Below, one piece after another: positions 835 through 40,318 of a stretch of DNA of 64,000 nt (position 1 is its first letter; each line of letters starts with the position of its first letter). The notes under the pieces were generated by a model. It saw only the letters and a program-made list of their open reading frames with translations. It made no database searches and was not told the DNA's origin. The position numbers and the translations under genes were made by a program. This stretch comes from Bacillota bacterium (lineage in GTDB: Bacteria; Bacillota; SHA-98; UBA4971). The stretch is taken from positions 222,186-286,185 of the forward strand of contig JBMNFG010000010.1 in assembly GCA_050949175.1 (NCBI GenBank). Reading direction: 5' to 3'.

Positions 835-3006
835 CTACTTGCGACGGTACTTAGGGAAATTAGGGCGTTTTCGCATTCTGCCGGTGTCTTTCGTTTCACG
901 CATGCTGTCATCCCTTGGAAGAGCATCCTTGCGTGACAGATTGATCCTACCCATGGAGTCGATTTCCGTTACCTTAACCATAATCGAATCCCCAACTTCA
1001 ACTACATCTTCCACCCTGTTGACGCGCCCATGGTCCAATTGGGAAATGTGAACAAGGCCTTCCTTTCCCGGGAGGATTTCAACAAACGCGCCGAAGCCGG
1101 TCGTCCTGGTTACTGTTCCGGTGTAGATGCGCCCTGCCTCTATGTCTGCGGTAAGGTCTTCCACCATCTTTCTCGCCTTTTCACCGGCTTCTTCATCAGA
1201 AGATGCTATGAATACTCTTCCGTCATCTTCTATATCAATCTTTACTCCGGTTACATCGATAATCTGTCGTATGTTCTTGCCTCCGGGCCCGATTATATCG
1301 CGGATCTTGTCAGGACTGACGGTCATTGTGATAATCCGTGGCGCATAAGGCGAAAGCTCCTCTCTCGGTTTCGGTATTACCTCCAGCATCTTGCCGAGGA
1401 TGAACATTCGTCCTTGTCTGGCTTTCTCTAAAGCCTTCTCCATGATTTCAGTGGTGATCCCGTCAGTCTTGATATCCATTTGCAGGGCTGTGATTCCCTT
1501 TTCGGTGCCTGCGACCTTGAAATCCATGTCACCGAAGGCATCTTCTATCCCCAGGATGTCGGAGAGGATTGCAACCTTATCATTCTCCTTAATAAGGCCC
1601 ATGGCTATTCCGGCTACCGGCCGTTTAATGGGAACTCCTGCATCCATAAGTGCAAGGGTTGATCCGCATACACTGGCCTGAGAAGTCGAGCCATTAGACT
1701 CCAGCACTTCAGAAACCAGCCTGATGGTGTACGGGAATTCTTCCTCATCAGGCAGCACAGGCAACAAAGCCCTTTCAGCCAGGGAGCCATGGCCTATTTC
1801 ACGCCGTCCGGGCCCTCTTATAGGACGCACCTCTCCCACACTGTAGGGAGGGAAGTTGTAGTGATGCATATAACGTTTTGATTCTTCATCACCAAGTCCG
1901 TCCAGAAGCTGCTCATCACCGATTGCACCTAAAGTGGCATTAGTGAGGACCTGTGTCTGTCCGCGGGTGAAAAGGCCTGTACCATGAACTCTGGGGAGAA
2001 GTCCGACTTCACATGATATTTGACGGATCTCATCAGGCTTGCGTCCATCGATGCGACGGGATTCTTCAATAACCATCTTCCTCAATTGTTCCCTGGCCAC
2101 AGCCTTGAGAACAATTGATACGTCTACCTCGAGGGTGTCAGGAGCCTCGAAAGACTCGTCTTCCGTAAGCTTCTTGAGGACCTCTTGCTCTATTTCTTCC
2201 AATCTCTCTTCCCTGGTAAGCTTGTCCGCAATCCGCAGAGCGGAAGAGACGTGTTCTGTAGCAAGTTCTCGCACCTTAGACTCGATGCTTTCACCTGGAA
2301 TGTAGAAAGTCAGCTCACGCTTGGGTTTTCCACATCGTTCCACCAATTCCTCTATAAGCTCCACAATCTCAACAACTGACTTGTGGCCGAAGGAAATGGC
2401 GTCCAGCATAACCTGTTCCGGGACTTCGTTCGCTCCGGCTTCTACCATAAGGATGGCGTTCTTGCTACCGGCTATTGTCAGATCGAGGTCGCTGGCTTCT
2501 GCTTGCTCAAGAGTCGGGCAAATCACAAGTTCGCCGTTGACTCTTCCTACTCTTACTCCACCGATAGGCCCGTTAAACGGGATATCTGAGATGGACAACG
2601 CAGCAGAAGCACCGATGAGTGCGGTGATATCCGGGTCATTGTCTTGCTCCACTGATAACACTGTACAGACCACCTGGACATCGTGTCTCATTCCTTCAGG
2701 GAACAAGGGTCTGAGAGGTCTGTCTATCATTCGTGCAGAGATTATCGCAGCCTCTGTAGGCTTCCCTTCTCGCTTTATCCAGCCTCCCGGAATCCTTCCT
2801 ACAGCGTAAAGCCGTTCTTCATAGTCCACAATTAACGGAAAAAAATCAATCCCCTCACGGGGGTCCCTGGACATGCATGCTGTCACCAGCACCACGGTAT
2901 CGCCATATCGGACTAACACAGAACCGTTAGCTTGTTTAGCGACCTTACCAACTTCAAGCGAAAGTCTCCTCCCGCCCAGATTCATATCTAGGCAGTGGTA
3001 ATCCAT
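835..3006 (-). CDS. pnp: polynucleotide phosphorylase / polyadenylase
   Basis: 723 aa with two RNase PH domains plus KH and S1 tail motifs ([30 protein letters not shown]). The RBS GAGGAGG lies upstream and the gene sits in conserved rpsO-pnp order. Confidence 0.97.
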
Positions 3007-3038
3007 ATTTTATCGATCCTCCTCAAAATCAACTGCTC

Positions 3039-3308
3039 TTACTTCCTAAGACCTAGTTTTTCCACAATCGTCCTGTATCTCTCAATATCTTTGTCACGTA
3101 AGTAATTAAGAAGACGGCGTCTTTGACCCACCATTTTCAATAGCCCTCTCCTGGAATGATGGTCCTTCTTATGCTCCTTCAAGTGTTCAGTTAAGCCGTT
3201 TATCCTTTCTGTAAGTATTGCGATCTGAACTTCAGGTGAACCAGTATCATTTTGGTGAATTCTATACTTCTCGATAATTGCTTTTTTCTCTTCGGCCGGT
3301 AAAGCCAT
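3039..3308 (-). CDS. rpsO: 30S ribosomal protein S15
   Basis: 89-aa product [60 protein letters not shown] at 3308 has an AGGAGG upstream. Confidence 0.97.
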
Positions 3309-3465
3309 TCCACTACACCTCCTGAAAGTATGCACGTCTCCCGCTGCCAAGAAGCTCGCCGGAGGATCGAAGAATCCTAGCAACGGGGCTTTGCGTAGCC
3401 AAGTTGTGCTACTACATGATAATGTTATCACATGGATATCTCAATGTAAACGATGCGTAGATCCT

Positions 3466-4407
3466 TCATGAAGCGTTCTGTCCTTCGAGAATGTCTTTTG
3501 CCCTTTCCACATCTTGCGAAATCTGACAGGCCAAGGCTTCAGCGGATTCAAACCTCTTCTCATCACGAAGCCTCTTGGCAAACAGCACCCTCAAAGCCTT
3601 TCCATATATGTCCCTGTCAAACCCGATTATGTGAGTCTCCACAGTCACGGCCTTTCCTTGAAAAGTCGGTCTTGTACCGACATTGGTCACACCTTTATAC
3701 ATCTCGCCTTCGATACACGCTATTGTTGCGTATACACCTGCTTTAGGAAGAGCTATTTCGCGGGGTACGTCAAGGTTTACCGTAGGATAGCCCATGGCTT
3801 TTCCGCGGCTTTGTCCCCTTACTATCTTTCCCTTAACTGAGTAAGGCCTGCCAAGCATTTTGCAGGCAGCTTCAACATCTCCTTTTGCAAGGGAAGCCCG
3901 AATCCTTGTGCTGGAGACTACTGTTCCGTCCACCACGACAGGTTTTGAGATCTCAACATTAAAACCGTACTTTTTTCCAAAGCCTTTGAGCGTTTCCGCA
4001 TTCCCTTCTGCTTTAAACCCAAAGGTATAATTGAACCCGACAACCACCCATTTCGCATTCAAGCAATCCACAAGGACTTTTCGGACAAACTCTTCCGGGC
4101 CTGTCCTGGCCATTTTACGGTCGAACCGGGCTATGACTGTGTTTTCTATGCCTGCATCCTTAATCAAAGCAAACTTGTCCTCAAGATCAGTAAGGGTCTC
4201 CGGTGCGAGCTGAGGCTTTATGACCTCAAGAGGGTGCTTATCAAAAGTAAAAACGCAACTGGGGATGCTTTCTTGCTTTGCCCGAGACACGCACCGCCTT
4301 AAAATCTCTTTGTGTCCTAAATGAACACCGTCAAATGTGCCCAGCGCAACTACGGATTCAGATAGATCGCTTGGGCTTCCGTCTTGAGCGTCGGAAAATA
4401 CCCTCAC
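3466..4407 (-). CDS. ribF: bifunctional riboflavin kinase / FMN adenylyltransferase
   Basis: VALGTFDGVHLGHKEIL nucleotidyltransferase motif plus a C-terminal riboflavin kinase domain. GTG start follows a GGAGG. Confidence 0.95.
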   Translation of the reverse strand: MRVFSDAQDGSPSDLSESVVALGTFDGVHLGHKEILRRCVSRAKQESIPSCVFTFDKHPLEVIKPQLAPETLTDLEDKFALIKDAGIENTVIARFDRKMARTGPEEFVRKVLVDCLNAKWVVVGFNYTFGFKAEGNAETLKGFGKKYGFNVEISKPVVVDGTVVSSTRIRASLAKGDVEAACKMLGRPYSVKGKIVRGQSRGKAMGYPTVNLDVPREIALPKAGVYATIACIEGEMYKGVTNVGTRPTFQGKAVTVETHIIGFDRDIYGKALRVLFAKRLRDEKRFESAEALACQISQDVERAKDILEGQNAS

Positions 4408-5390: not shown

Positions 5391-6371
5391 TCAATCACCT
5401 GCTAATCCCATGATTTTGTAAACCTTGCCGAATACCAGCTCCCTTGCCTGTGCAATAGACCCTGTATCCAGAGTACATCCGGCTGCTTTCGCATGACCGC
5501 CGCCTCCCAATTCTTCAGCGAGGGCACCTACATCGAATTCTCCTTTTGACCTCATACCGACTCGGATCTTTCCATCGGAGCTCTCTCTAAAGAGGAAAGC
5601 AACTTCAACACCTCTTACCATACGGCCGTAATTCACAAACCCCTCGGTCTGTTCTTCATCGAGAGAAAACTCGGTCATCCAGTCGTCATACACTTCCAAC
5701 CAGGCAATCTTGCCTGTCTTGTCCAGGCGTAGAGTATCAAGGACCCTTCCCAGCATCTTAAGGCTTTCCAAAGGCCTCGCCTCATAAATCTGCTCCGAGA
5801 TTGCACCGGGTTCAGCGCCTTTTTCCACCAGCCTGGCAGCAATGCGAAGGGTCGTCGGAGTAGTGTTGGAAAACCTGAAAAACCCAGTATCAGTGGCAAT
5901 AGCAGTAAACAGGCATACTGCAATACTAACGTCCACACGTACGTTCATGGAGACGAGGATCTTGTAGATCTGCTCACCTGTGGCAGCAGCTGAGGTGTCT
6001 ACATAGTTGTAAGTGCCGTAAGACTTGTTTGTTGCGTGATGATCAATATTCACAATGGGTATGCCGGAACGAAGCTTCTCATATATTCCTTCAATGCGTC
6101 CTAAATCCGACGAGTCCAGAACCACCACGATGTCATATTCCGAGGGCTCTATGTTGTCAGCGGAGAGTATCTCTTCTGAACCCGGGAGGAATCGCAAGTT
6201 CTCAGGCACCCCTCCGGGACAAGCCATTGTCACCCGGCGGCCTCTTTTCTGCAATCCCATGCCTAATCCCAGCATGGAACCGATAGCATCTCCGTCAGGC
6301 AGAACGTGCGTTGCAATGAGAAACCTGTAATGCTTTAACAGGGTTCCTGCGATCTCCTGGTGGATCTCCAC
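5391..6371 (-). CDS. nrnA: DHH/DHHA1 phosphoesterase (NrnA-type oligoribonuclease / pAp phosphatase)
   Basis: DGDAIGS, DHH-type IDHHATN and C-terminal GGGGHAKAAG motifs. Position between rbfA and truB is conserved. Confidence 0.85.
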   Translation of the reverse strand: MEIHQEIAGTLLKHYRFLIATHVLPDGDAIGSMLGLGMGLQKRGRRVTMACPGGVPENLRFLPGSEEILSADNIEPSEYDIVVVLDSSDLGRIEGIYEKLRSGIPIVNIDHHATNKSYGTYNYVDTSAAATGEQIYKILVSMNVRVDVSIAVCLFTAIATDTGFFRFSNTTPTTLRIAARLVEKGAEPGAISEQIYEARPLESLKMLGRVLDTLRLDKTGKIAWLEVYDDWMTEFSLDEEQTEGFVNYGRMVRGVEVAFLFRESSDGKIRVGMRSKGEFDVGALAEELGGGGHAKAAGCTLDTGSIAQARELVFGKVYKIMGLAGD

Positions 6372-6730
6372 TACTCGCCGCCCTCCTCATCCTTTCGGAT
6401 CTCCTGCAACAGCCGGAACACTTTGGCACCGTGCTCTATAGAGGTGTCGTGACGGAACACAATCTCCGGAGTGTGGCGAAGCCTCACACGTTTTCCGATT
6501 TCAGTGCGGACGAAACCTGTGGCACTCTCAAGAGCTGCCATGGTTTCAGAGACTTGAGTCTCATCGCCCATAACACTTACGAATATTTTTACGTGTCTTA
6601 AGTCCCCGGAAACCTCCACATCTGTCACTGTGGCAAAACCAAGCCTGGGGTCTTTCATTTCCCTTGCTAAGATATCAGCTACTTCCGTTCGGATTGCCTC
6701 AGCAATCCTTTTAGGCCTTAATCGTGTCAA
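6371..6730 (-). CDS. rbfA: ribosome-binding factor A
   Basis: RIAEAIRTEVADILAREMKDPRLGFATVTDVEVSGDLRHVKIFVSV. I place the start at TTG 6730, preceded by AGGTGG, because the longer ORF to 6772 overlaps the DUF503 gene. Confidence 0.9.
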   Translation of the reverse strand: MTRLRPKRIAEAIRTEVADILAREMKDPRLGFATVTDVEVSGDLRHVKIFVSVMGDETQVSETMAALESATGFVRTEIGKRVRLRHTPEIVFRHDTSIEHGAKVFRLLQEIRKDEEGGE

Positions 6731-6749
6731 CGGTAACCACCTGCCAAAT

Positions 6750-7031
6750 CTACAGAACGCATTTCTCAACACCGGTTACTTCAAGTTTTGGGTCGGATTC
6801 AATATCCCTCAACACCCGGGACAGCACGCTGTCTACGACTCTCGCCTCATTGGAAACGCATACTATCCCAAGGGTGCTCCTTTGCCATAAGTCGCAATTA
6901 CCTACTTCTGCAATGGCTACGTCATATCTTGACTTGATTCTGTCGCAAAGGCCTTTGACAACGCGTCTTTTGTCTTTCAAAGATGTAGCCCAGCCTATAT
7001 AAATGTCAACTTCCATGGTCCCGACTATCAT
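6750..7031 (-). CDS. DUF503 (YlxP-like) protein
   Basis: MIVGTMEVDIYIGWATSLKDKRRVVKGL... is typical of DUF503. The slot between infB and rbfA is conserved. Confidence 0.8.
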   Translation of the reverse strand: MIVGTMEVDIYIGWATSLKDKRRVVKGLCDRIKSRYDVAIAEVGNCDLWQRSTLGIVCVSNEARVVDSVLSRVLRDIESDPKLEVTGVEKCVL

Positions 7032-7056
7032 CTCATTGTACCGCCCGGAGTCTTCT

Positions 7057-10038
7057 CTAAAGTGCCCTTGGCGTCTCAACCAGCTTAAATGCTTCTATTA
7101 CATCGCCTTCTCTGATGTCTTGATAATTTGCAACGCCAATCCCGCATTCGTAGCCTGACATAACTTCAGTTACATCATCTTTAAACCTCTTTAGCGATGC
7201 AAGCCTGCCTTCATGGATTACTATGTTATCTCTTATGACCCTAACCATCGCGTCTCTTGTAATCTTACCTTCATTCACGATACACCCTGCGACTATGCCG
7301 ATTCTCGGCACTTTAAAGGTCTGCAGCACATTGGCTGTTCCAAGTGTGACCTCACGTATCTCAGGTTCCAGCAACCCTTCCATTGCTGCTTTCACATCGT
7401 CCAAGGCATCATAAATCACTCTGTAGATACGGATATCAATCCGGTCACGTTCAGCTATTGCCTTAGCATTTCCGTCAGGTCTCACCTGAAAGCCGAGGAC
7501 GATGGCATTTGAAGCTGAAGCCAGCATAATGTCGCTTTCGGTTATAGCTCCTACACCTGAATGAATAACGTTAACCTTTACCTCATCAGTGGATAAGGCT
7601 TCCAGGGATTGTCGCAATGCTTCCACAGAACCCTGGACATCTGCCTTAATTATCAGGTTAAGCTCTTTGATCTCTCCTTCTTTTATCTTACCGAAGAGAT
7701 CGTCGAGGCTGATCGTTCTTGAAGACTGGATTTCCTCAGCCCGCTTTCTTTCAGATCGTATTGTTGCAAGTTGTCGAGCCAGCCTATCTTCGGAAACCAC
7801 ATCGAAGATCTCACCGGCCTCAGGGACTTCATCGAAACCCAGGATCTCAACGGGCATTGAAGGGCCTGCCTCATCCACAGGCTTACCCTTGTCGTCACTC
7901 ATAGCCTTAACCTTACCGGATACGGGCCCTGCAATAATCGCGTCTCCAACCCTGAGTGTCCCTCGTTCGATCAAAACGGTAGCTACAGGCCCTTTGCCCC
8001 TGTCCAGTTTCGCCTCGATTACTGTTCCTCTGGCAGGCCTGTTAGGATTCGCCTTAAGCTCCTTCAAGTCAGCCACGAGCAAGATCATTTCCAGAAGGTC
8101 ATCTATTCCTTGCCGTGTCAGAGCAGATACTTCCACTGTGACAGTGTCTCCGCCCCAATCCTCAGTTATCAAGCCATGTTCAGTTAGCTGCTGCTTAACC
8201 CTGTCAGGCTGTGCATCAGGCTTGTCTATCTTATTCAACGCGACGATTATAGGCACATCTGCAGCCTTAGCATGGTTGATAGCCTCAACGGTCTGAGGCA
8301 TTACTCCATCGTCAGCTGCTACAACCAGGATGGCAATGTCGGTCACCTGCGCACCCCGTGCTCTCATGGCAGTAAAAGCTTCATGGCCGGGTGTGTCAAT
8401 GAAAGTGATCTTCCTTCCATTCAGTTCAATCTGATATGCGCCGATATGTTGAGTTATGCCGCCTGCCTCCTGAGCAGTGACGTTAGTTTTTCGAATCGCG
8501 TCAAGGAGAGACGTTTTTCCGTGGTCTACGTGGCCTAACACAGTCACAACCGGAGGCCTCGGGAGGAGGTCCTCGTCTCTGTCAACGCTGTCTTCAATAC
8601 CGAATTCCCTTGCCTCTTTCTTCTCAAACGGTTCAACTTCAAAGCCCAACTCTTCCGCGACTAAGCTGGCAGCATCAAAATCGATTTCCTGATTGATTGT
8701 AACCAGCAGGCCCATGGCCATGAGAGCTTTGATAACCTCGGAAGGATTGACTCCGAGTTTATCTGCAAAAGCTCCTACTGTGATACTTTCCGGAAGCGCA
8801 ACTATGCTCTTCTTTGCCGCGTGGCTCCGTCGCTTGACAGGAGCCTCTCGCACAGGCTCCTTAACAACGTCTTTATTTCGTGTCCTTGCTCTTCTGCTTC
8901 GGATAATCGCTTCTGCACGGGATTCTCTTAGCTTTGCAGCACCTTTTCCTCCTTTGATGAGTTCCAGCCTTCTCTCATCAAGACCTTTACCTGCAGCAGG
9001 TTTACGTACAGGAGGTTTAGGCACAGATGGTTTAGGCACAGGAGGTTTAGGTGCGGCCGGTTTCCGGGCTGCAGGCGCCATCTGCGGTTTCTTCGCCTCA
9101 ACTTCCATTGCTTTCTCTTCTATCGCTGTTTCTTGACGGACATCTGATATCTCCGGTGTGGTAACAACTGCTTCTTGGGACACTGGTTCATCTGCCTTTT
9201 CTTCAGGTTTCTTTACCGGCTCTTCTGCTGCAACCGGCTCTTTTGCCTTGTCTTCCGTAACAGGCCTGACTTCCTTAGCTTCCTCATGAGGTGCTTGAAC
9301 CTTCGGTTCAGGTATGGCAGTTTCGGTGGCCTCAGGACGAACAGGAGCAGCAAGCTCGACTACCTCAGCTGCGACATCTTCTTGCACTTCCAACTTCTTC
9401 GCCTCGCCGGCAGCCATCTCTGCCTGCCGTGCACGAGCCGCTCGTGACCTTGCCAATGCATCAGCCTGAGGCTTTGCTTTATCTGCCGATTTTTTGGGAG
9501 GAATCGCCGGCGCAATCTGGGTAGGCCATTGCATCGGCCTTTGCCTGCGCCTAGCCTCTCCTGTTGTGGTTCCCGAACGTCCCTGGGACCTACGGTCACC
9601 GCTCCTCGGCCGCCTTGCCCTGTCCGGGGTTGGGCTTGACCTCTTTCGGTCAGCTGTTGGCGCACCTGCCTTTGCACCTGACATTTGGCTACGTATCTTC
9701 TTAAAATCAGCGCTGGATGTAAGATGTCCCGCTCCCCGCAGTGCACCTAAAGCGCCTGGAGTTTTCGCCTTTCTGTCAGGCTTCTTGGGCTTCGGAACCT
9801 CTACCTCCCGCACAGGGGGTTCCTCCACCTCTTCAGAAACGCCTTTTCCAACAGGCGCTTCAGGCTTCTTACCCTCTATTTCAGCAAACTTGTTCTTAAT
9901 GAACCTAACAACATTGTCGTCCAGGGCGCTCATATGGTTCTTATCCCGCACTCCCGAATCTGCAAGCAATTCCAGAATGTCCCTGCTTGTCTTTCCGAGT
10001 TCACGTGCTAATTCGTATACCCTGGTTTTTTTTGCCAT
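7057..10038 (-). CDS. infB: translation initiation factor IF-2
   Basis: 993 aa. GTPase motifs [20 protein letters not shown] and NKID follow a long low-complexity Lys/Pro/Ala N-terminal region. Confidence 0.97.
9011..9055 (-). repeat. three tandem 15-nt units inside infB encoding [15 protein letters not shown]
   Basis: The plus strand reads ggaggtttaggcaca / gatggtttaggcaca / ggaggtttaggtgcg back to back. Confidence 0.7.
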
Positions 10039-15432: not shown

Positions 15433-15867
15433 TTAACAATCATCAAATCCCACGGGACACACAAACGGACACCGCCGAGTGAGCTTACACGCGTGGAACA
15501 TCACGCATGGGCACGGACAGGGACACGGCGGACACGGCGGCGGACACGGAGGACACGGACTGGGAGACGGCATTACAGCCGAGTTGTCTGTCTGATCTCC
15601 CAGACATTGCCTTACAACTGCATTTATGGCTCTTTCCTTCTGTGCTATTGCAGCTATCTCCTGTGCCATGACACACTCTAAAGCCCTCACCCTATCAACC
15701 AGTGCCTCAAAGGGCAGTTCCGGCGCAGTATCAGGAAGCCAGTTCGCAACCTTCTCCGCTTTATCTGCTAAAGAGGTCAGGATGCGCGCCAGCTGTTCTT
15801 CTTCTGTTGCAACTGCCGCAAGGATCCTGTCACAAGGATCCGGCGAACATGGGATGCATCTTGCCAC
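15433..15867 (-). CDS. paralogue 1 of a three-member family: conserved N-terminal helical module plus a Cys/Pro-repeat tail (PSPSPCPPCPPPCPPCPCPCPC...)
   Basis: The N-terminal blocks DRILAAVATEEEQLARILTSLADKAEK and ECVMAQEIAAIAQKERAINAVVRQCLG align with the ORFs at 17676-18026 and 18838-19635. Likely GTG start at 15867, 8 nt after AAGGAGG. The listed ORF starts at 15876. Confidence 0.75.
   Translation of the reverse strand: MARCIPCSPDPCDRILAAVATEEEQLARILTSLADKAEKVANWLPDTAPELPFEALVDRVRALECVMAQEIAAIAQKERAINAVVRQCLGDQTDNSAVMPSPSPCPPCPPPCPPCPCPCPCVMFHACKLTRRCPFVCPVGFDDC
15511..15570 (-). repeat. GACACGG heptamer micro-repeat encoding the Cys-Pro tract
   Basis: gcacggacagggacacggcggacacggcggcggacacggaggacacggactgggagacgg contains four exact GACACGG copies plus two degenerate copies at irregular 2-5 nt spacing. 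Confidence 0.8.
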
Positions 15868-15872
15868 ATCAG

Positions 15873-16484
15873 TCACCTCCTTTCAGGTGCGTTGCATTTC
15901 AGGGGTTTTGCTAATATCCGTTTAAGAAGACAGGTCCATCTCTGCTTCCATAGGGATTCCGGGTAACCTTCGGCTAATTTCCGTGCATTCTCTCCCATCC
16001 TTCTACGCAGCCCTTCATTGCCGGCCAGTTCAAGAAGAGCCTGAAACACATTGGCAACAGCCGGGTATAGCAGATAGCCGTTCCACCCGTGAACAACATG
16101 TTCAGCGAGCCCTCCCGCAAATCCGGCTATGACAGGGAGTCCGCATGCCATAGCCATGAGGCATACCTTCGGGGCTGCAAGATGCCAATGGTAGTAAATC
16201 CTCAGGTCATATCCAAGGCTTCTACGGGCAAATACCGAGTTCAGTCCGGGAAACATAGACAGATGATCCGGATCTTGGTCAATGCCGAAGACGCGAACTC
16301 CATCAAATACCCGTTGCGGAATGGGAGATGCCTGAAACACATCTACCTGCCAGCTGAGTTCATCTCTGATGAAACGAATAAGCTTCAGTAAGCCTAGGTT
16401 TTCTTCAACAGGTAGAAACCTGTCCAGAGTCGGGTGCAACATGTAGTCAGTTAGAATGGCAATACTGTAAGAACCTTGCTTCAC
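15873..16484 (-). CDS. half-size glycosyltransferase (GT-B C-terminal Rossmann half only)
   Basis: 203 aa with CGLPVIAGFAGGLAEHVVHGWNGYLL and a C-terminal helix typical of GT4/GT1. Its GTG start overlaps the upstream stop by 3 nt (...ATGTGA...), and the SD for the next gene lies at its 3' end. Confidence 0.7.
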   Translation of the reverse strand: MKQGSYSIAILTDYMLHPTLDRFLPVEENLGLLKLIRFIRDELSWQVDVFQASPIPQRVFDGVRVFGIDQDPDHLSMFPGLNSVFARRSLGYDLRIYYHWHLAAPKVCLMAMACGLPVIAGFAGGLAEHVVHGWNGYLLYPAVANVFQALLELAGNEGLRRRMGENARKLAEGYPESLWKQRWTCLLKRILAKPLKCNAPERR

Positions 16485-17617
16485 ATTTCATCATCTCCCC
16501 AGACGCTTCTCAGCGTCTTTCGCCATCTTTCCTTCCATCGCTCCAGTGAAAACTGGAATGATGTCTCCAGTGCCTGTCTGCCCAGAGTTTGCCGAAGTTC
16601 AGGATGAAGAATAAGGCTCTCAACCGCTTCCTCCAGCGTCTCAGGGGATACGTTGATAAGAATGCCGTTGTACCCGTCTATCACGAGATCGGTAAGCCCT
16701 CCTACGTGCCCGCATATCACAGGTTTTCCGCAGGCCATGGCTTCAAGGCAAGCAAGGGACGTGCCTTCCGCAGCCCTGGTGGGAATGACGACAATATCCG
16801 CCATCCGGTAGAGATCCGGCATATTCTCCATGGGAACCCAGTAGTACAGGCATCTCGGATTCTCTTTAGCCCATCCGTTCATTTCAGCTTCGGAATCATC
16901 AGTTCCACCTCTACCCACGATGTGGAATTCCAAAGATGGGTATCTTCGCGTCAACCTCTCAGCTACAACTTTGACATCATCCAGTCCCCGGATCCATGTC
17001 AACCGTCTAGGATAAAGAACGACCAACGACTCGCCGGATTTCTTGTCTTCACCTGGATAGAACTCTGTGCGGTCTACAAAATTCGGGATATACGCTTGCT
17101 TGTGCTCATATCCGGGCCATGTAGCCCTTAACCAGTTCAAAGTGTTCGTATCCACGGAAACCACGAGCTCACAAGCGGTTACCGCGTAATGCAGCCTCCT
17201 CAGCCACTCCTCTTTCAGGGGTCCTGATAGAGGCGACCAAGTATGAGCCGGGTAATCCCATCCTATTCCATGGGAAATGACAATTGAGTTAGGTTTTACC
17301 CGCGGGAAGGCAAGAGGCAATGCGAAGTATATGGCTTTATCGTAACCTGCAGTGTTCTCAAAAAACTGGATGTTGAGATCGGGCAACCCGCCGAATTCCG
17401 CCCTGCCCTTAGGAAGCCCTCGGATTCTCAAACCTTTTACCAGTCGATCTTCCGAGCCCACTTGCCAAACACACGGTTCGTAGCCTGATTCCTCCAAAAA
17501 CTCACAGAGATGCACAAGATATCTGTCAGCACCGCTGAACATCATCCTATCGCCTTCTGTAATGAAAATACTTGTCAAAATGGCAACGCGTCTGTCAAAG
17601 TTCACAGATATCAACAC
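16481..17617 (-). CDS. GT4-family glycosyltransferase
   Basis: 378 aa. It has EGTSLACLEAMACGKPVICGHVGGLTDLVIDGYNGILI and an N-terminal GT-B half. The exact start is uncertain: GTG 17617 abuts the GGAGG, and GTG 17605 is better spaced. Confidence 0.85.
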   Translation of the reverse strand: MLISVNFDRRVAILTSIFITEGDRMMFSGADRYLVHLCEFLEESGYEPCVWQVGSEDRLVKGLRIRGLPKGRAEFGGLPDLNIQFFENTAGYDKAIYFALPLAFPRVKPNSIVISHGIGWDYPAHTWSPLSGPLKEEWLRRLHYAVTACELVVSVDTNTLNWLRATWPGYEHKQAYIPNFVDRTEFYPGEDKKSGESLVVLYPRRLTWIRGLDDVKVVAERLTRRYPSLEFHIVGRGGTDDSEAEMNGWAKENPRCLYYWVPMENMPDLYRMADIVVIPTRAAEGTSLACLEAMACGKPVICGHVGGLTDLVIDGYNGILINVSPETLEEAVESLILHPELRQTLGRQALETSFQFSLERWKERWRKTLRSVWGDDEM

Positions 17618-17635
17618 CTCCGTGAATGGTGAGTA

Positions 17636-17661
17636 GGGTTGGGCAAGGCTCTGCCCAACCC
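17636..17661 (-). promoter_or_regulatory. 10-bp GC-rich stem-loop between paralogue 2 and the glycosyltransferase genes (possible partial terminator or mRNA stabiliser)
   Basis: GGGTTGGGCA aggctc TGCCCAACCC. No U-tract follows on the minus strand. Confidence 0.4.
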
Positions 17662-17675
17662 ATTCGACGTCAGAT

Positions 17676-18026
17676 TCATTCTAGCGGCGGAAACGGAGGT
17701 ACCGGCGGCAGCGTCGGTTCGGCTACACAAGGTCCCACTGTCAAATTGATAGGACCTATCAGGTTCCCAAGCACTGCAGCAACTTTGAGAGCAATTGCAA
17801 ACTCCTTGCAGGCCATTGCTCCGATTACCTCGGCTATCGAATCCTCTATCGATAGCGCTTTACCCAGAATAGTATTGGGACTCTCAGTTTCAGGGAACTC
17901 GAGAGGCGTGATAAGGGCTGCAGACGCAGCAGCTTTATCTGCTTCGGCAGAAAGGATGGACGCAAGGAATTCCTGCTCGTCTGCGACTGTGCTTAAGATT
18001 CTGTCTATGACTGTACCGTTTGGCAT
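17676..18026 (-). CDS. paralogue 2: same N-terminal module with a short Pro-rich tail (PTLPPVPPFPPLE)
   Basis: DRILSTVADEQEFLASILSAEADKAAA and EDSIAEVIGAMACKEFAIALKVAAVLG blocks. ATG at 18026 follows GGGAGG. Confidence 0.75.
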   Translation of the reverse strand: MPNGTVIDRILSTVADEQEFLASILSAEADKAAASAALITPLEFPETESPNTILGKALSIEDSIAEVIGAMACKEFAIALKVAAVLGNLIGPINLTVGPCVAEPTLPPVPPFPPLE

Positions 18027-18114
18027 TCTGGATTAAACCTCCCTACCTATCTTTGGACTGCGCTCCTTCAAAGCGCGGTCTAGTCCATGATATGAAGCAG
18101 CAGGATCCTTGGAC

Positions 18115-18142
18115 ACACAGTTCATGCTTAAAGCATAGAATA
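18115..18142 (+). promoter_or_regulatory. sigma-K-like (late mother-cell) promoter candidate for the DUF3794 gene
   Basis: CATAGAATA at 18134-18142 fits the B. subtilis sigma-K -10 consensus CATA-N3-TA. AC dinucleotides lie 15 and 17 nt upstream. Confidence 0.3.
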
Positions 18143-18174
18143 ATCTGACTTGAGGTACAAGGAGTTGGGCCTCT

Positions 18175-18741
18175 ATGAATCGACTAGATCGACAAACAAT
18201 CATAAAACCTTTATTTGAGTGCGAACGGAATACCTGGTGTAAACCGGAAAAAACGACGGTGCTGATAGGTGAAGCAGAAGTCCAGACAGTGAAAAGAACG
18301 GCGTTTCCAGTTCCGAAATGCGGTTTTCCCGCAAAAAAGATCATTGCAGTCCACGTAGAAGTAGTTGACACAACTGACACGATATTCAAAAACAAAGTAG
18401 TAAAAGAAGGCGTATTCCAGGTGGACATCATTTACGCATCCTGTGACGGGCTGGTTCACCATGTATGTCATGAAATCCCGTTCATGACATCTGCTCACAT
18501 CAAATGCGTCCGTCCGGGAATGCATGTTCAAAACGAAGTCATTGACACTGAACAGAAAATCGAAATAGTTACAACACCGCGGCGCGGGGCCAAATGCCAA
18601 TGCTTTGATGTTATGGTCGCGGCAACATTTCTCATAAGAGTAACTGCCGACGTTGTCAAGAGCCCGGTTCAACGCCATACAGTCGGACGCTGCTGTCCTC
18701 ACCATAAGAAGACTGCATCGTCTTTAAGAAGAAAGAAATAG
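18175..18741 (+). CDS. DUF3794-domain protein (a domain seen in clostridial spore-coat morphogenetic proteins)
   Basis: The pattern KKIIAVHVEVVDTTDTIFKNKVVKEGVFQVDIIYASCDGLVHHVCHEIPFMTSAHI...PGMHV matches my memory of DUF3794 repeats. The Cys- and Lys-rich tail is unusual. Confidence 0.6.
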   Translation: MNRLDRQTIIKPLFECERNTWCKPEKTTVLIGEAEVQTVKRTAFPVPKCGFPAKKIIAVHVEVVDTTDTIFKNKVVKEGVFQVDIIYASCDGLVHHVCHEIPFMTSAHIKCVRPGMHVQNEVIDTEQKIEIVTTPRRGAKCQCFDVMVAATFLIRVTADVVKSPVQRHTVGRCCPHHKKTASSLRRKK

Positions 18742-18753
18742 TCACCAAATAAT

Positions 18754-18778
18754 AAGGGGGCAGTCTTCACGCCCCCTT
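18754..18778. terminator. bidirectional terminator hairpin between convergent genes
   Basis: AAGGGGGC agtcttcac GCCCCCTT, with moderately T-rich flanks on both strands. Confidence 0.7.
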
Positions 18779-18837
18779 ATCATTATGATTTACTTACCGG
18801 CTCCTTTTCCATCAGGCTTATTCACAAACTTCAAAGT

Positions 18838-19635
18838 CTACTGCGAACCAAATGTCACAAGATCGATTGATGATTCCCCTGCTCCTTCTTTTATAAACGT
18901 GATTGTTGCCGAAGTTGCGTTTTCCGGTGTGTCCAAGACATATACATAAGTATGGTATCCTTGGCCCAATGTTGTAATTACCCTGTTAAACGTAGAAATA
19001 GACCCGTTACTGAAAAACTCTACCTGTACTGAGAGTGTAGGGCCTGCCGGGTTTCCGGATGCTGCAAAAGTAAGCTGGTAAGGACATCCACCGTTTACCG
19101 GGACAGTCTGAGAGATTGATGCATCCTGACTGGTATTAGGTGAGCCTAGAACTGCAACAACATTTCCCGAGAAAACGGTAGATACCGGTTCTCCGTTCCG
19201 CACACGGGGCTCGGCGTTCACTACATCCCATCCCACTAGTTGAGGGTCCTCCGGATCTGAGCCGGTATCCTCGAAATCCCCGTTTATGATTACATCCCCT
19301 GTGCTAGGACATTGTTCTTCAGGACAGGGCAAACATTTGTCACGGCTAATGACTTTCCAGATAATAGGACCGCATTTCGTTCCCAAAAGGGCACATAGCT
19401 TCGCTGCAATGGCAATCTCTTTCTCAGCCGCAGAACTGAGAACACAACTTACAGACCTTTGTATTTGCACAATGCTTCCGATTATCTCATTTGGCGTCAG
19501 CTGCTCAAGGTCCTCGTCTGTAATCAGCGTAATCCAGCGCGCTGTCTCAGCTGCCTTGACTGCCTCGGCCGACAGTATACTTGCTATAGACTCCTCTTCG
19601 TCGGCGATGACGGATAAGATCTCACTTGTGCTCAT
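18838..19635 (-). CDS. paralogue 3: same N-terminal module fused to a roughly 170-aa beta-sandwich (CBM-like) domain
   Basis: SEILSVIADEEESIASILSAEAVKAAE and QRSVSCVLSSAAEKEIAIAAKLCALLG blocks, a Cys-rich linker (CLPCPEEQCPS), then INGDFEDTG...LVGW... typical of CBM4_9-type jelly rolls. ATG at 19635 follows GGAGG. Confidence 0.8.
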   Translation of the reverse strand: MSTSEILSVIADEEESIASILSAEAVKAAETARWITLITDEDLEQLTPNEIIGSIVQIQRSVSCVLSSAAEKEIAIAAKLCALLGTKCGPIIWKVISRDKCLPCPEEQCPSTGDVIINGDFEDTGSDPEDPQLVGWDVVNAEPRVRNGEPVSTVFSGNVVAVLGSPNTSQDASISQTVPVNGGCPYQLTFAASGNPAGPTLSVQVEFFSNGSISTFNRVITTLGQGYHTYVYVLDTPENATSATITFIKEGAGESSIDLVTFGSQ

Positions 19636-19727
19636 GTATAGACCTCCTTGAGCGTGTGGTGTGATATCGCATTATTATATGTTGGACATCACCTGAACGG
19701 TAGTCCAATAAGTCTCTCAAAAACCAA

Positions 19728-19753
19728 AACGGGGCAGATATTACTGCCCCGTT
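19728..19753 (-). terminator. intrinsic terminator downstream of the COG2403 gene
   Basis: AACGGGGCAG taatat CTGCCCCGTT followed by TTGGTTTTT on the minus strand. Confidence 0.8.
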
Positions 19754-19799
19754 CATGCATTTTAGCTGTCTCACAGCAGGTTATGACGTTGCACTGCAG

Positions 19800-24026: not shown

Positions 24027-25730
24027 TTAGCAACCCACCTGGAATCTTGTGACAGAAGGAGATGAAGGACTCGTCACAACATTAGGAAAATCCAGCAAGC
24101 CAAGGATCGGTTCTTCGCAGACAACAGCAAGTTTTACAGCCTCTTCAATTCTGTCAACAGGCAGCACCCGGATGTCAGTTCTGTCCCTGAAGACTTCCTG
24201 CCAGTTTTCCCTTGGAATTATCACTCTCTCGACCCCTGCTTGCGCTGCAGCCTCGACCTTGGGGACTATTCCTCCAACCGGCCTTATATCACCTAAGATC
24301 GATACCTCGCCTGTCATGGCGACTTTATTATCCACTAGCTGCTGTGTAATAGCTGAGTAAATCGCTGTTACAATCGCTATCCCGGCCGAAGGGCCGTCCA
24401 GAGCAAGGCCTCCCGGGAAGTTCACGTGGATGTCGTAGTCTTCAGGATTCAGAGAAAAGAACCTTTTCAAGATAGTTGCTACATTCTCCACTGACCCTCT
24501 GGCCATGCTTTTTCTCTTTACTATTCGCCCCTGGCCGCCCAGCTCTTCCTCGTCCACAAGGCCTGTGGTGACCAGCTTACCTGCTTTGCCTTCCACTAGA
24601 GTGGCGACTGCTTCAATCTCAATCAGGGATCCCATATTAGGGCCGCGAATCGCAAGGCCGTTTACATAACCTATCCGCGGCTTTGGCGGAGGCTTCGGTT
24701 CACAGCGAGGTGCATACTGCCCTGCACTGACCACCCATTCTATGTCCTTCTTGAGTATTACGGATCGCCCTGCAGATATACAAGAACCCCCCGCTATCTG
24801 AAGTATATTCACTGCGTCACGGCCGTTGGACGCGTACTTTTTTATGACCTCCAAAGCTTCCTCATCCAGTTGAAAGCCTGCTTTCTTAGCAGCGTTGGAT
24901 GCGATGATCCCTACTTCTTCTTCGCTGAGCGCCCTAAAGAAAACCTCTATACACCTGGAACGCACTGCAGGAGGAATATCGTGAGGAGTCTTTGTTGTGG
25001 CTCCTACCAGCCGAAAATCCGCAGGAAGTCCGTTTTGAAATATATCGTGGATATGCTGGGGGATATTGGGATCCTCTGAATTATAGTATGCACTTTCCAA
25101 GAACACCTTCCTATCTTCAAGTACCTTTAAGAGCTTGTTTATCTGGATGGGATGGAGCTCCCCTATCTCATCGATAAACAGAATACCGCCATGGGCTTTA
25201 GTCACAGCCCCAGGCTTTGGCTGAGGAATCCCTGCCATTCCCATGGCTCCCGCTCCTTGGTAGATAGGATCGTGGACTGAACCGATAAGGGGATCAGCAA
25301 TTCCCCTATCGTCAAATCTCGACGTAGCACCGTCTATTTCCACGAATTTCGCCCCCGGCCTAAACGGAGACTTCGGGTTCTTCTTCGCTTCTTCCAGGAT
25401 AGCTCTGGCTGCGGCTGTCTTGCCGACTCCCGGAGGGCCATAGATGATGACATGCTGAGGATTGGGTCCGCATAAGGCAGCCCGCAATGCCCTGAGGCCT
25501 TCTTCCTGACCTATGATCTCTTGAAGAGAATTGGGTCGTGTCTTCTCCGACAAAGGCTCTGTCAGGGATATACTTCGCATCTTACGCAGCTTCTCCATTT
25601 CCTTCCGGGATTCACGATCAACGGCTACTTTTCCACCTTGCTGCGTCCTTAACATATGCCAGAAGTATATCCCGATGATTGCAGCAAAAAAGAGATTGAT
25701 CAGTCCGAAGACACTGCCGGAGAAGTCCAT
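24027..25730 (-). CDS. lonB: LonB-type membrane-anchored Lon-like protease
   Basis: N-terminal TM helix, [13 protein letters not shown] Walker A and GPSAGIAIVTAIYSA protease motif. The gene order clpX-lonB-lonA matches Bacillus. Confidence 0.9.
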   Translation of the reverse strand: MDFSGSVFGLINLFFAAIIGIYFWHMLRTQQGGKVAVDRESRKEMEKLRKMRSISLTEPLSEKTRPNSLQEIIGQEEGLRALRAALCGPNPQHVIIYGPPGVGKTAAARAILEEAKKNPKSPFRPGAKFVEIDGATSRFDDRGIADPLIGSVHDPIYQGAGAMGMAGIPQPKPGAVTKAHGGILFIDEIGELHPIQINKLLKVLEDRKVFLESAYYNSEDPNIPQHIHDIFQNGLPADFRLVGATTKTPHDIPPAVRSRCIEVFFRALSEEEVGIIASNAAKKAGFQLDEEALEVIKKYASNGRDAVNILQIAGGSCISAGRSVILKKDIEWVVSAGQYAPRCEPKPPPKPRIGYVNGLAIRGPNMGSLIEIEAVATLVEGKAGKLVTTGLVDEEELGGQGRIVKRKSMARGSVENVATILKRFFSLNPEDYDIHVNFPGGLALDGPSAGIAIVTAIYSAITQQLVDNKVAMTGEVSILGDIRPVGGIVPKVEAAAQAGVERVIIPRENWQEVFRDRTDIRVLPVDRIEEAVKLAVVCEEPILGLLDFPNVVTSPSSPSVTRFQVGC

Positions 25731-33289: not shown

Positions 33290-34267
33290 TCACGTCAGGA
33301 AAGACGGTGCTACATAAGGCAGGAAGTACAAAGCCAGCGTGACTGCAAGAAGATCTCCGGAACCGCCGGGACTGATGCCGAGAGAGGTAAACTCCTTATC
33401 CATAAGAAGAATGCTACATCTTCCGTCTTCAGTGAGCATGCCGCCTTGCGATAAAGCCAGCCTTGCTCGCGGTTTTACAACGTCTTCCAGGGTTTCAACA
33501 GACGATCTATGAACCACGCAGGTATCGTCCAGATTAGCCATTATCGAGATCAGAGAGTGTACCATGGCATCGTTCAGTGAAAGGCCGCACTTGAGGGTTT
33601 TCTCCAGTGCAGGTAATCCGTGGTGAAAGACTGTAGGAAACCCTGCTTCAGCCTCGCCTCTTGCCCCTGTTAACCCGTGCATCATGTAGATACGCTCTCC
33701 GTTAGAAAGATGCCGAGGATCGGCTTTGACACGTCTTAAGCCAAGAAGGTCTCGCTCGACTATTCCGCAGGTTATGGCCTGTACTGTCCGGGTTGTTTGA
33801 AACCTGTCAGGTACTCCGCCGCCGGCAATGATGTACCCGGTAGATGCAGCTATCAACCCTAGACTGAATATTGCCCCTTTATGGGTATTCACGCCTCCGG
33901 TAGCCTCGTACATTCTAGCTTCCGCTTGAACCCCGATCGACCTCACCTTGTCCAGTAACCCGTGCACCGGTCCTGTATGGCCCATTCCTACCTCTGCCAT
34001 GGCAGCAAAACTCGGACCTATTGCAATAGCACTCCTGACAAGAGTCAGATAGTCCATGTCATCATGTGCACCAGAGCTAGTCATATCAACCAGCCCGGGC
34101 GCAGGTGTGCAAGATGCCTCGAGAATCAGGGCGAGAAGCAATACTTCGCCTATCCTTTGAGCCTCAGGCGAGATCTGTTCATAGTAGGTCTTCGCGCCTT
34201 GCCAGCTTAACTTCGCGGATTCCTTTGACAAGGATAGTATCTCTGCCTGATAAGAGCTCACGGCCAT
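33290..34267 (-). CDS. mdcB: triphosphoribosyl-dephospho-CoA synthase (MdcB/MadG) for the malonate decarboxylase ACP prosthetic group
   Basis: TPAPGLVD, VNTHKGAIFSLGL and GISPGGSGDLLA motifs. The start is uncertain: ATG 34267 or GTG 34282. Either overlaps mdcG by about 90-100 nt. Confidence 0.85.
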   Translation of the reverse strand: MAVSSYQAEILSLSKESAKLSWQGAKTYYEQISPEAQRIGEVLLLALILEASCTPAPGLVDMTSSGAHDDMDYLTLVRSAIAIGPSFAAMAEVGMGHTGPVHGLLDKVRSIGVQAEARMYEATGGVNTHKGAIFSLGLIAASTGYIIAGGGVPDRFQTTRTVQAITCGIVERDLLGLRRVKADPRHLSNGERIYMMHGLTGARGEAEAGFPTVFHHGLPALEKTLKCGLSLNDAMVHSLISIMANLDDTCVVHRSSVETLEDVVKPRARLALSQGGMLTEDGRCSILLMDKEFTSLGISPGGSGDLLAVTLALYFLPYVAPSFLT

Positions 34268-34964
34268 TAACTCCCCACCCACCTTTTAGCTGAACTTCTA
34301 CATCTATTCGTACGGCGAAGCTCTTCTCAAGTGCGTCAGCCAACTCAACGATGCGAGAGACTTCGTCTATGGAAACTCGTGCTACAACAACGTCTAGGTC
34401 AGAAATGCCGTCAGTGTACGGCAGCCCTGTATATATCTCCAGAGCACCCGAACCCCATACCCCAAACGCAATCTCCTCCCGCACTCTCTCTTTCATGACA
34501 GACAGTGCAGCTAACGCCGGGGTCCTTGGCACAACAGGAAGCCTTGCAACCTCCTGTGGAGTAATCCGCTTTGAAACAAATCGACGGTGAAGGACACACG
34601 GAATCCTTATCCTTCTTGATTCAGGCATAAACGGAATGACGAAGCCTACTGCAACGAAACCATCCATCGTACAGTCGCCGTATATCTCACGTGCAGAATC
34701 CATATCGCCATCGGTGAACCTTCTGACAATGCCGGGAAGGTGGACTCCGTTGCACCCATGTTCAAGCACGTGCTTGCAGTAGCGCCTGGCAGAAGGTGAA
34801 GGCCATGAGTCGACCTTCAGCAGACTCTTTATATCCCAAACGTACTGCGATAAATGCTTTCGGCCTTCCGGGGAGATTTCCACCAGGTCGTGCCTGGTAA
34901 ACTCATTGGATATCCCAACTTCTTGCAGAGGGTTCACCTCCTCTTCGTATATGCCGGATCCCAT
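34179..34964 (-). CDS. mdcG: phosphoribosyl-dephospho-CoA transferase (holo-ACP synthase MdcG type)
   Basis: FGVWGSGALEIYTGLPYTDGISDLDVVV nucleotidyltransferase signature. Its position is next to mdcB. Confidence 0.8.
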   Translation of the reverse strand: MGSGIYEEEVNPLQEVGISNEFTRHDLVEISPEGRKHLSQYVWDIKSLLKVDSWPSPSARRYCKHVLEHGCNGVHLPGIVRRFTDGDMDSAREIYGDCTMDGFVAVGFVIPFMPESRRIRIPCVLHRRFVSKRITPQEVARLPVVPRTPALAALSVMKERVREEIAFGVWGSGALEIYTGLPYTDGISDLDVVVARVSIDEVSRIVELADALEKSFAVRIDVEVQLKGGWGVNGRELLSGRDTILVKGIREVKLARREDLL

Positions 34965-37926: not shown

Positions 37927-37948
37927 ACGCAATAGCCACCTCCATGTA

Positions 37949-38281: not shown

Positions 38282-38317
38282 GGCAATCCCCCTTCTCGGT
38301 GCGCATACCTGTCTGTT

Positions 38318-40000: not shown

Positions 40001-40014
40001 ATTCTCAAGTCCCT

Positions 40015-40278: not shown

Positions 40279-40318
40279 ATAAAACTACACCTCCTAGAGA
40301 TTCGTAACAGCTGGCTAA

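Follow-up and report, generated by a model that had tools for sequence, protein, structure and literature searches.

The analysed window is a 64,000-nucleotide stretch of the genome of an uncultured member of the Bacillota (contig JBMNFG010000010.1, positions 222,186 to 286,185 of the forward strand). Between positions 15433 and 19635 it contains a cluster of genes for three paralogous proteins (here named P1, P2, and P3), two glycosyltransferases (GTs) of family GT4, and a protein with a SPOCS/DUF3794 domain. All six open reading frames (ORFs) were found in the ORF listing as described in an earlier annotation of this DNA (hereafter the original prediction). The cluster and its associated features are arranged as follows.

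15433..15867, minus strand: P1, an A_ENA-domain protein; ORF of 144 amino acids (aa) from the GTG at 15867, the ORF extending to 15876
15873..16484, minus strand: second GT4-family gene, an in-frame deletion allele of 203 aa, identified by alignment with L001:7543-8712 and with 381-aa orthologues
16481..17605, minus strand: first GT4-family glycosyltransferase (GT1), 374 aa, Pfam Glycos_transf_1 with 95.8 bits
17636..17661, minus strand: GC-rich RNA hairpin between P2 and the GT genes, from folding and conservation in 8 loci
17676..18026, minus strand: P2, a single-domain A_ENA protein of 116 aa, from the precomputed Pfam A_ENA match and the hairpin in an AlphaFold2 (AF2) model
18027..18174, no strand assigned: divergent control region between P2 and the SPOCS gene, holding CATAGAATA and CATATCATGG
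18175..18741, plus strand: SPOCS/DUF3794-domain protein, 188 aa with 10 Cys, Pfam SipL/SPOCS with 33.9 bits
18838..19635, minus strand: P3, 265 aa, consisting of A_ENA, a Cys-rich linker, and a beta-sandwich resembling carbohydrate-binding modules (CBMs), from Pfam A_ENA and Foldseek
19673..19681, minus strand: CATATAATA, a -10-like element upstream of P3, from sequence reading and invariance in 5 loci
19727..19754, minus strand: intrinsic terminator of the gene upstream of P3, from a terminator scan (11-bp stem followed by a T-run)

The original prediction had proposed a family of three paralogues with a common N-terminal module and unrelated C-termini, and both parts of this proposal were confirmed. 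The module comprises ~85 residues (BLASTP E 2e-6 to 2e-14), and its similarity was significant in every pair, with E-values of 2e-6 for P1 and P2 (39% over 82 aa), 2e-14 for P2 and P3 (48% over 87 aa), and 9e-7 for P1 and P3. Its predicted fold is an alpha-helical hairpin. In the AF2 model of P2, two helices (residues 4-39 and 50-85; predicted local distance difference test scores (pLDDT) of ~70-80 within the helices) correspond to the two sequence blocks quoted in the original prediction. Behind the hairpin the proteins diverge into a Cys-Pro tail (P1), a tail with the sequence PTLPPVPPFPP (P2), or a Cys-rich linker followed by a beta-sandwich (P3). A hidden Markov model (HMM) scan of all 748 six-frame segments of the 64-kb window detected no fourth copy of the module.

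Sequence comparisons showed that the shared module belongs to the A_ENA family (Pfam PF26595). Precomputed Pfam matches to PF26595 exist for P2 and P3 (unmarked, E <= 1e-5) and for P1 (marked as weak), and the same family is assigned to the true A-ENA protein (P0030/Q8KNV8) and ~120 of its relatives. A profile built from the three modules retrieved ~29 relatives, all from uncultured Bacillota, 25 of which carry the precomputed PF26595 match. The top sequence match in the PDB was 9ihh_A ('Ex vivo spore-silk A-ENA fibers'), with the whole hairpin aligned at an E-value of 0.5, and comparison of the window family with 25 canonical A-ENA homologues by hhalign gave an E-value of 4.2e-5 and a probability of 69.6% over 76 columns. 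When an HMM of canonical A-ENA proteins only was run against the 748 window segments, P2, P3, and P1 ranked first to third (E 0.002, 0.005, and 0.06; next 3), and in the reverse HMM search 48-49 of 120 canonical proteins outscored the best of 1200 shuffled or reversed decoys. P1 and P2 gave no significant match in scans against NCBIfam and against a Pfam set that lacks PF26595 and leaves even true A-ENA without a match. The original prediction had regarded the module as uncharacterised; it is instead the Pfam A_ENA domain, for which a cryo-EM fibre structure at 2.1 Å exists (PMC13111695). The motif to which it had likened the module (SIALEExALSHILNAEGEK) is helix 1 of A-ENA (LEELGLAHVINAEGEK).

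The A-ENA fibre was described by Sleutel, Sogues & Remaut (Nat Commun 2026; PMC13111695; PDB 9ihh). Its subunit is a 101-residue alpha-helical hairpin of Bacillus thuringiensis israelensis, which stacks into a two-protofilament cross-alpha 'sporesilk' fibre around the spores; each subunit takes part in ten intermolecular isopeptide bonds that lock this fibre (PMC13111695). Homologues occur across Bacilli and Clostridia, often with several paralogues per cluster, and are either single-domain subunits or fusions that are thought to dock passenger domains onto the fibre (PMC13111695). The member studied forms fibres by itself in vivo and in E. coli, and the family members studied so far are spore-matrix proteins (PMC13111695). 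These fibres are described as being among the most resilient natural protein polymers, and recombinant nanofibres are possible (PMC13111695). The earlier view of the module as spore-associated and recurrent in front of variable passenger domains was thus supported, whereas its designation as a common anchoring or assembly module needs revision, as the studied family member is a self-polymerising fibre subunit with intermolecular isopeptide crosslinks.

The residues that form the isopeptide bonds (IPBs) of A-ENA were mapped onto the window family (P3 numbering against A-ENA numbering) from family alignments. Window residue E13 corresponds to A-ENA E28 (catalyst of IPB3 and IPB4), E/Q14 to E29 (acceptor of IPB3), E24 to E39 (catalyst of IPB2), K27 to K42 (donor of IPB2), E/Q59 to N64 (acceptor of IPB2), K72-E73 to K77-E78 (IPB4), and K79 to K84 (donor of IPB3). 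These eight polar positions are invariant or near-invariant in the window family, and all eight positions of IPB2 (K42-N64/E39), IPB3 (K84-E29/E28), and IPB4 (K77-E78/E28) are K, E/Q, or E in P2- and P3-type proteins. In these alignments the family was shown to keep exactly three of the five A-ENA triads, namely the axial bonds that link subunit i to subunit i-1. P1-type proteins keep the equivalents of E28, E29, K42, N64 (as E), K77, and E78, and have L at the E39 position and V or L at the K84 position. In P2-type proteins the K76 position is occupied by a conserved Cys, and in all P2- and P3-type proteins the hairpin is followed by the motif LG-x-x-x-GPI-x-W/L and then by cysteines. Since the subfamily keeps the axial crosslinks only, it can tell the bonds that stacking requires from the accessory ones, and its cysteines suggest an alternative route to bundling or anchoring.

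The three paralogues appear to fill different roles. P2, whose tail consists of GPINLTVGPC followed by EPTLPPVPPFPPLE, is the likely candidate for the major subunit of the proposed fibre. The part of this tail encoded at 17676-17720 (EPTLPPVPPFPP) is absent from P2 orthologues in sister species. It resembles the core of the exosporium leader of B. anthracis BclA; the match of TIGR03720 to P2 covers 9 C-terminal residues and reaches 12.6 bits (cut-off 23; E 0.086). The same segment also resembles the TPTLPPSPP linker that follows A_ENA in a fusion protein of locus L033 (3513-4235), which is encoded beside a GT1-like enzyme.

The CBM-like nature of the C-terminal domain of P3, proposed in the original prediction, holds at the fold level. 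AF2 modelling of full-length P3 from four sequences gave a mean pLDDT of 46, with an unreliable N-module and linker, and the usable part of the model is the beta-sandwich at residues 160-265 (pLDDT 65-78). With this domain, Foldseek retrieved CBM16, CBM4, CBM61, and toxin receptor-binding domains at E-values of 1e-5 to 1e-6, in agreement with weak profile matches to DUF642, CBM_4_9, NTTRR-F1, and choice-of-anchor C. A word-indexed homologue search with full-length P3 found 5 close relatives only, and an exhaustive search with the beta-sandwich found 19. Among these 19, P0186, P0187, P0189, and P0196 are collagen-like proteins (with GXX repeats) that have the domain at their N- or C-terminus, whereas in P0190 it is again fused to A_ENA. 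A third A_ENA fusion of this kind is encoded in locus L020 (CBM_4_9 match, E 2e-4). Since its relatives end collagen-like proteins and other A_ENA fusions, the P3-type domain seems to behave as a 'head' of fibrous proteins of the spore-surface type, and P3 is a candidate fibre-borne adhesin or tip protein. Some of the collagen-like relatives carry a different helical N-terminal domain.

P1, which has orthologues in proteins P0010-P0022, contains 16 Cys in all, distributed over a Cys-rich N-terminus (CIPCSPDPC) and the Cys-Pro tail. Judged from its residues, it is a cysteine-rich, donor-deficient variant and possibly a fibre cap or anchor. Reading of the sequences of P1-P3 revealed neither an N-terminal hydrophobic segment suggestive of a signal peptide nor an obvious membrane anchor.

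The genomic surroundings offer a spore context. SPOCS domains are known from spore-envelope morphogenetic and structural proteins. The SPOCS protein encoded between P2 and P3 matches Pfam SipL/SPOCS (PF12673) with 33.9 bits (gathering score 23.6) and is kept in all syntenic loci and in L020; a PDB sequence search with this protein returned nothing relevant. By analogy with the Cys-rich SPOCS proteins CsxA and CsxC, which build the exosporium basal layer and the parasporal lattice of C. sporogenes (bioRxiv 10.64898/2026.09.03.749163), it is a candidate lattice or anchoring partner in the spore envelope. The pairing of SPOCS and A_ENA genes is previously undescribed. The window also encodes a LonB sporulation-protease equivalog (24027-25730; 888 bits) beside lonA, because of which the host is very likely an endospore former.

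The block P3/SPOCS/P2/GT/GT/P1 is syntenic in at least 7 assemblies of uncultured Bacillota, which represent the same and related species and derive mostly from digester or fermentation metagenomes. The conserved gene order is lonA, a 442-aa P-loop protein, P3, SPOCS, P2, GT, GT, P1, (in relatives) CW_binding_2, and an EF-G-like gene. L020, a more distant member of the subfamily that lacks the flanking housekeeping genes, has a related arrangement (939-3605) of a SPOCS gene, an A_ENA-CBM fusion (286 aa), and two single-domain A_ENA genes. P2 was found in 874 blocks of the public assembly collection.

Because the architecture reported for A-ENA, with single-domain subunits and fusions encoded in paralogue clusters, matches the locus, and because the SPOCS neighbour, the LonB equivalog, and the lack of an evident signal peptide provide a spore context, we consider it probable, though with a substantial margin of doubt, that the locus encodes a divergent A-ENA-type endospore appendage system of uncultured endospore-forming Bacillota of anaerobic digesters. 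The picture drawn in the original prediction, a spore-surface display system with associated GTs, is otherwise compatible with the evidence and was partly strengthened.

The proposed stem-loop between P2 and the GT genes proved to be real. The hairpin at 17636-17661 has an 11-bp GC-rich stem, lies in an 86-nt stretch that folds at -30.2 kcal/mol (z -2.8), and is conserved in 8 orthologous loci, among which two of its base pairs show compensatory changes; a U-tract is lacking. It is a candidate attenuator or 3'-end stabiliser that would favour P2 over the GTs. Further downstream, the Shine-Dalgarno (SD) sequence of P1 sits inside the last codons of the preceding GT gene, as sequence reading bore out, and the two GT genes overlap in GTGA; the predicted overlap thus exists, with a length of 4 nt in coordinates and not 3. 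P3 is a transcription unit of its own, given the terminator at 19727..19754.

The motifs of type CATA-N3-TA reported in the original prediction are present and invariant in orthologous loci. The P2/SPOCS intergenic region carries CATAGAATA on the plus strand (~18134-18142) and CATATCATGG on the minus strand, and has a mean identity of 92% over 7 orthologous loci, with both CATA-type motifs invariant. Since this identity exceeds that of the encoded proteins, which is only ~70-75%, the region appears to be under dense regulatory constraint. Upstream of P3, CATATAATA is invariant in 5 orthologous loci and lies inside the conserved block GTCCAACATATAATAATGCGAT. As the whole P2/SPOCS intergenic region is conserved to this degree, however, the conservation does not single out the CATA motifs, and their invariance does not identify the sigma factor. 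A sigma-70 promoter scan revealed no enrichment over shuffled sequences and no site in front of P2, P3, or the SPOCS gene. No convincing -35 element was seen by eye at canonical spacing from the CATA motifs, which were therefore assigned neither to sigma-K nor to sigma-E. In the P3 5' leader (19636-19672) the window lacks a 32-nt insertion with an inverted repeat (TTACGTC...GACGTAA) that is found in sister loci (L004 ~6330-6400). Between the convergent P3 and SPOCS genes (18745-18785) lies a GC-rich inverted repeat (AAGGGGGC...GCCCCCTT), which looks like a shared bidirectional terminator and is absent from the terminator-scan list.

The two GT genes differ in their state of preservation. GT1 (16481-17605) matches Glycos_transf_1 with 95.8 bits and the N-terminal Glyco_transf_4 domain with 25.8 bits, below the gathering score of 28.5 bits; both Rossmann-like domains of a GT-B enzyme are present. 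Its start is most likely at 17605, giving 374 aa as in L001 and L003, and not at 17617. The second GT gene had been described as a half-size GT. It does not encode a natural short enzyme; it is an allele with an in-frame internal deletion of residues 108-293 (186 residues) of a 389-aa form, the rest being 100% identical to L001:7543-8712, the intact gene in another assembly of the same species (381 aa in distant relatives). In the window protein, which through the deletion no longer has both Rossmann-like domains, the Glycos_transf_1 match covers the last part of the domain only, and to judge from this sequence the enzyme is probably inactive. The deletion is common to the window, L002, and L003, and L002 additionally has an interrupted GT1 (6422-7387). 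These alleles mark the GT genes as polymorphic, or in decay, within the population.

GTs adjoin A_ENA genes repeatedly. The original prediction would have been refuted had the module not recurred beside GT genes in other genomes; it does recur there, and the prediction thus passes this test. The presence of the GT pair in every locus of the window clade amounts to one evolutionary observation only. In L022 two A_ENA genes are followed by a GT4 gene and an A_ENA fusion, and in Acetivibrio alkalicellulosi an A_ENA fusion adjoins nucleoside diphosphate (NDP)-sugar genes and a GT2. When metagenomes were scanned with the canonical profile, 80 unrelated loci were obtained, 15 of which have a GT4 ORF 28-996 bp from the A_ENA gene (a raw count without a formal baseline). 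Two types of GT recur. Type A enzymes (~420 aa, 58-69% identical among at least 7 loci) accompany A_ENA proteins with long poly-Thr/Ser linkers or tails. Type B enzymes (L033, L034, and L050; ~650 aa) are 36-38% identical to full-length GT1 over their C-terminal 375 residues (E 1e-68), a similarity far stronger than that of GT1 to PDB enzymes (E 1e-10), which is a generic GT4 similarity. In the type B loci the GT is followed by a GT2-like gene and then by an A_ENA fusion with a Pro/Thr linker (TPTLPPSPP or ETPTPPTPPTPE). In many canonical-type A_ENA proteins beside type A enzymes (ORFs of L024, L026, L029, L079, and L093), a long poly-Thr/Ser linker or tail immediately follows the hairpin, in one case with ~100 residues of T/S; by sequence, these tracts look like mucin-type O-glycosylation tracts. 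On the basis of these comparisons, a functional partnership of A_ENA proteins and GTs appears well supported. By analogy, the P2 tail EPTLPPVPPFPP and the SPSPSPCPP segment of P1 are candidate glycan acceptors. The recurrence of two GT families beside A_ENA, often with mucin-like Thr linkers, points to glycosylated spore fibres, and such glycosylation might be relevant to the adhesion and aggregation of spores and to phage or host recognition. The main text of the A-ENA paper (PMC13111695) makes no mention of glycosylation, and a literature search for a link between A-ENA and glycosyltransferases found no paper in the collection searched.

Alternatively, the two GT4 genes might be functionally unrelated to the A_ENA proteins and make a spore or cell-wall polysaccharide, sharing the locus only. 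Both enzymes are generic GT4 proteins, and their best structural relatives include not only lipid-linked and teichoic-acid enzymes (PglA, TarM, and MshA) but also SdgB, a protein O-glycosyltransferase. Ser/Thr-rich linkers are missing from the window proteins, and the GT genes are decaying in some strains. This explanation deserves serious consideration but is the less likely one, because the GT genes are placed between P2 and P1 in every syntenic locus, with junctions that overlap or contain an SD, because a GT1 relative and a second GT family stand directly beside A_ENA genes in unrelated contigs, and because many of the A_ENA proteins in those contigs carry mucin-like poly-Thr linkers.

For the preferred appendage system, the following course of assembly is proposed. 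P2 would be made in the mother cell late in sporulation and stack into a cross-alpha protofilament that locks itself via Lys-Glu/Gln isopeptide bonds, while P3 would enter the same stack through its A_ENA domain and display the CBM-like sandwich as an adhesin or glycan-binding head. P1, which keeps acceptors, lacks the K84-type donor and the E39-type catalyst, and is rich in Cys, may serve as the end or the anchor of the fibre, perhaps linked by disulfides to the Cys-rich SPOCS protein in the spore envelope. The GT4 pair might glycosylate one or more of P1-P3, or the fibre itself, the second GT presumably being crippled by its deletion in the window strain, and the hairpin after P2 may keep P2 in excess over the enzymes. 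Such fibres may influence spore clumping and persistence in engineered anaerobic ecosystems, given that P2 occurs in 874 assembly blocks and that named relatives come from digester-type metagenomes.

Several observations weigh against an appendage of this kind. The system is known from the genes of an uncultured organism alone, and its similarity to the solved A-ENA is remote (hhalign probability 69.6%, PDB E 0.5). The membership of P1 is weak, and hmmalign to the canonical model left its helix 2 unaligned. A Foldseek search of the PDB with the P2 model missed 9ihh and gave helical-hairpin matches that all had E-values of at least 2, although insignificant E-values are common for so simple a hairpin fold. 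The N-terminal latch (MxMPxIPxxxPxIxIxR) and IPB1 (N-terminus to Q44) are absent from P1-P3, which have only ~5-7 residues (P2, P3) or a Cys-rich segment (P1) before helix 1, and A, E, or D at the Q44 position. The lateral inter-protofilament bond IPB5 (K76-Q82, catalyst E86) is absent too, as the window family has C, D, or E at K76, A at Q82, and A, C, or S at E86. In the solved fibre the latch ties subunit i to subunit i-5 (PMC13111695). With the latch and two of the five bonds missing, the fibre architecture could differ or polymerisation fail. Finally, one GT is deleted in part in the window and the other broken in the sibling locus L002, so that the GTs may be dispensable or unrelated to the fibre, and the A_ENA proteins of the window lack the Thr-rich linkers that make glycosylation plausible elsewhere.

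The lack of the latch and of the lateral inter-protofilament bond would also fit the reading of the original prediction, in which the A_ENA modules only oligomerise or anchor P1-P3 in a coat or exosporium lattice and no extended fibre is formed. Consistent with this, all three proteins have conserved Cys near the end of the hairpin and adjoin a Cys-rich SPOCS protein of the lattice type, and the P2 tail is weakly similar to an exosporium-targeting motif (TIGR03720, E 0.086). We nonetheless regard a purely anchoring function as unlikely: the retained residues coincide exactly with the axial stacking bonds on which the protofilament is built, the single-domain P2 has nothing to display and makes most sense as a polymer subunit, and the only family member studied forms fibres unaided, both in vivo and in E. 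coli (PMC13111695).

A more far-reaching version of the appendage interpretation, for which we see only a modest chance, holds that A-ENA fibres generally are glycoproteins of dedicated neighbouring GTs and that the present clade represents a distinct design. In this design the three axial isopeptide locks would be kept, the latch and the lateral bond would be replaced by a C-terminal GPI-x-W/Cys connector (a hybrid of isopeptide and disulfide linkage), and the fibre would be rooted on a SPOCS lattice via the donor-deficient, Cys-rich P1 cap.

That the cluster instead has nothing to do with sporulation and belongs to the vegetative cell surface, a phage, or a secretion system is very improbable: the sigma-factor motifs are admittedly mere pattern matches, but P1-P3 and the SPOCS protein match no PHROG or phage genome, no obvious signal peptide or membrane anchor was seen when the sequences were read, a gene for a SPOCS-domain protein adjoins, the family members studied so far are spore-matrix proteins (PMC13111695), and the locus is embedded among chromosomal housekeeping genes, with lonA on one side and an EF-G-like gene on the other. 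A phage origin in particular was rejected, as neither PHROG nor a tblastn search of 50,697 phage records gave a match for P1-P3 or the SPOCS protein; the N-module thus matched none of the phage families and records searched.

Compared with known systems, the putative appendage cluster is most similar to A-ENA of B. thuringiensis israelensis (Q8KNV8, 9ihh), with which it shares the Pfam family, the ~85-residue hairpin, the residues of IPB2, IPB3, and IPB4, the presence of several paralogues in one cluster, and the combination of single-domain subunits with passenger fusions. It differs in the lack of the latch with IPB1 and of IPB5, in the C-terminal GPI-x-W/L motif with subsequent cysteines and the Cys at K76 in P2-type proteins, in its passengers (a CBM-like beta-sandwich or Cys-Pro tail versus collagen/C1q), in its chromosomal location with two GT4 genes and a SPOCS gene (versus an amidase on a toxin plasmid), and in its host, an uncultured anaerobic member of the Bacillota instead of a Bacillus. 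As in the A-BclA-type fusions (A_ENA with collagen-like and C1q domains) and the Pcl clusters of Pasteuria ramosa (PMC13111695), A_ENA would insert a head domain into or onto the fibre, but P3 has no collagen stalk and joins its head to A_ENA by a short Cys-rich linker. The S-ENA and L-ENA fibres of the Bacillus cereus group likewise consist of small self-assembling subunits with covalent links and tip proteins, a likeness that for the window is read from the genes alone, and the conserved cysteines beside the polymerising domain recall the disulfide linkage of these fibres. Their fold is a beta jellyroll (DUF3992), however, whereas that of the window family is an alpha hairpin, and no ORF of the cluster had a Pfam match to DUF3992.

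Genes of BclA-type exosporium glycoproteins are located beside glycosyltransferases. The cluster resembles this type in its adjoining GT genes and in the PTLPPxPPF-like motif of the P2 tail; unlike in BclA, this leader-like motif is located at the C-terminus, and it is species-specific and of weak significance (E 0.086). BclA-type membership was rejected, as P1-P3 contain neither collagen GXX repeats nor a C1q domain and TIGR03720 remained below threshold, and the bclA analogy of the original prediction therefore fails at the level of membership. The SPOCS neighbour is similar to CsxA and CsxC of Clostridium sporogenes in its domain and its 10 cysteines, but is much smaller (188 aa), and its lattice formation is only putative.

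Genes of the ATP-grasp YheC/D family adjoin A_ENA genes in Heliorestis convoluta, Acetivibrio alkalicellulosi, and Anaerobranca californiensis (L015 4171-8129; L016 8954-11270; L021 372-1157) and may be another recurrent A_ENA partner. Elsewhere in the window, positions 33290-41458 contain a malonate decarboxylase / Na+-translocating decarboxylase cluster with mdcA, an mdcB-like gene, and a beta subunit gene.

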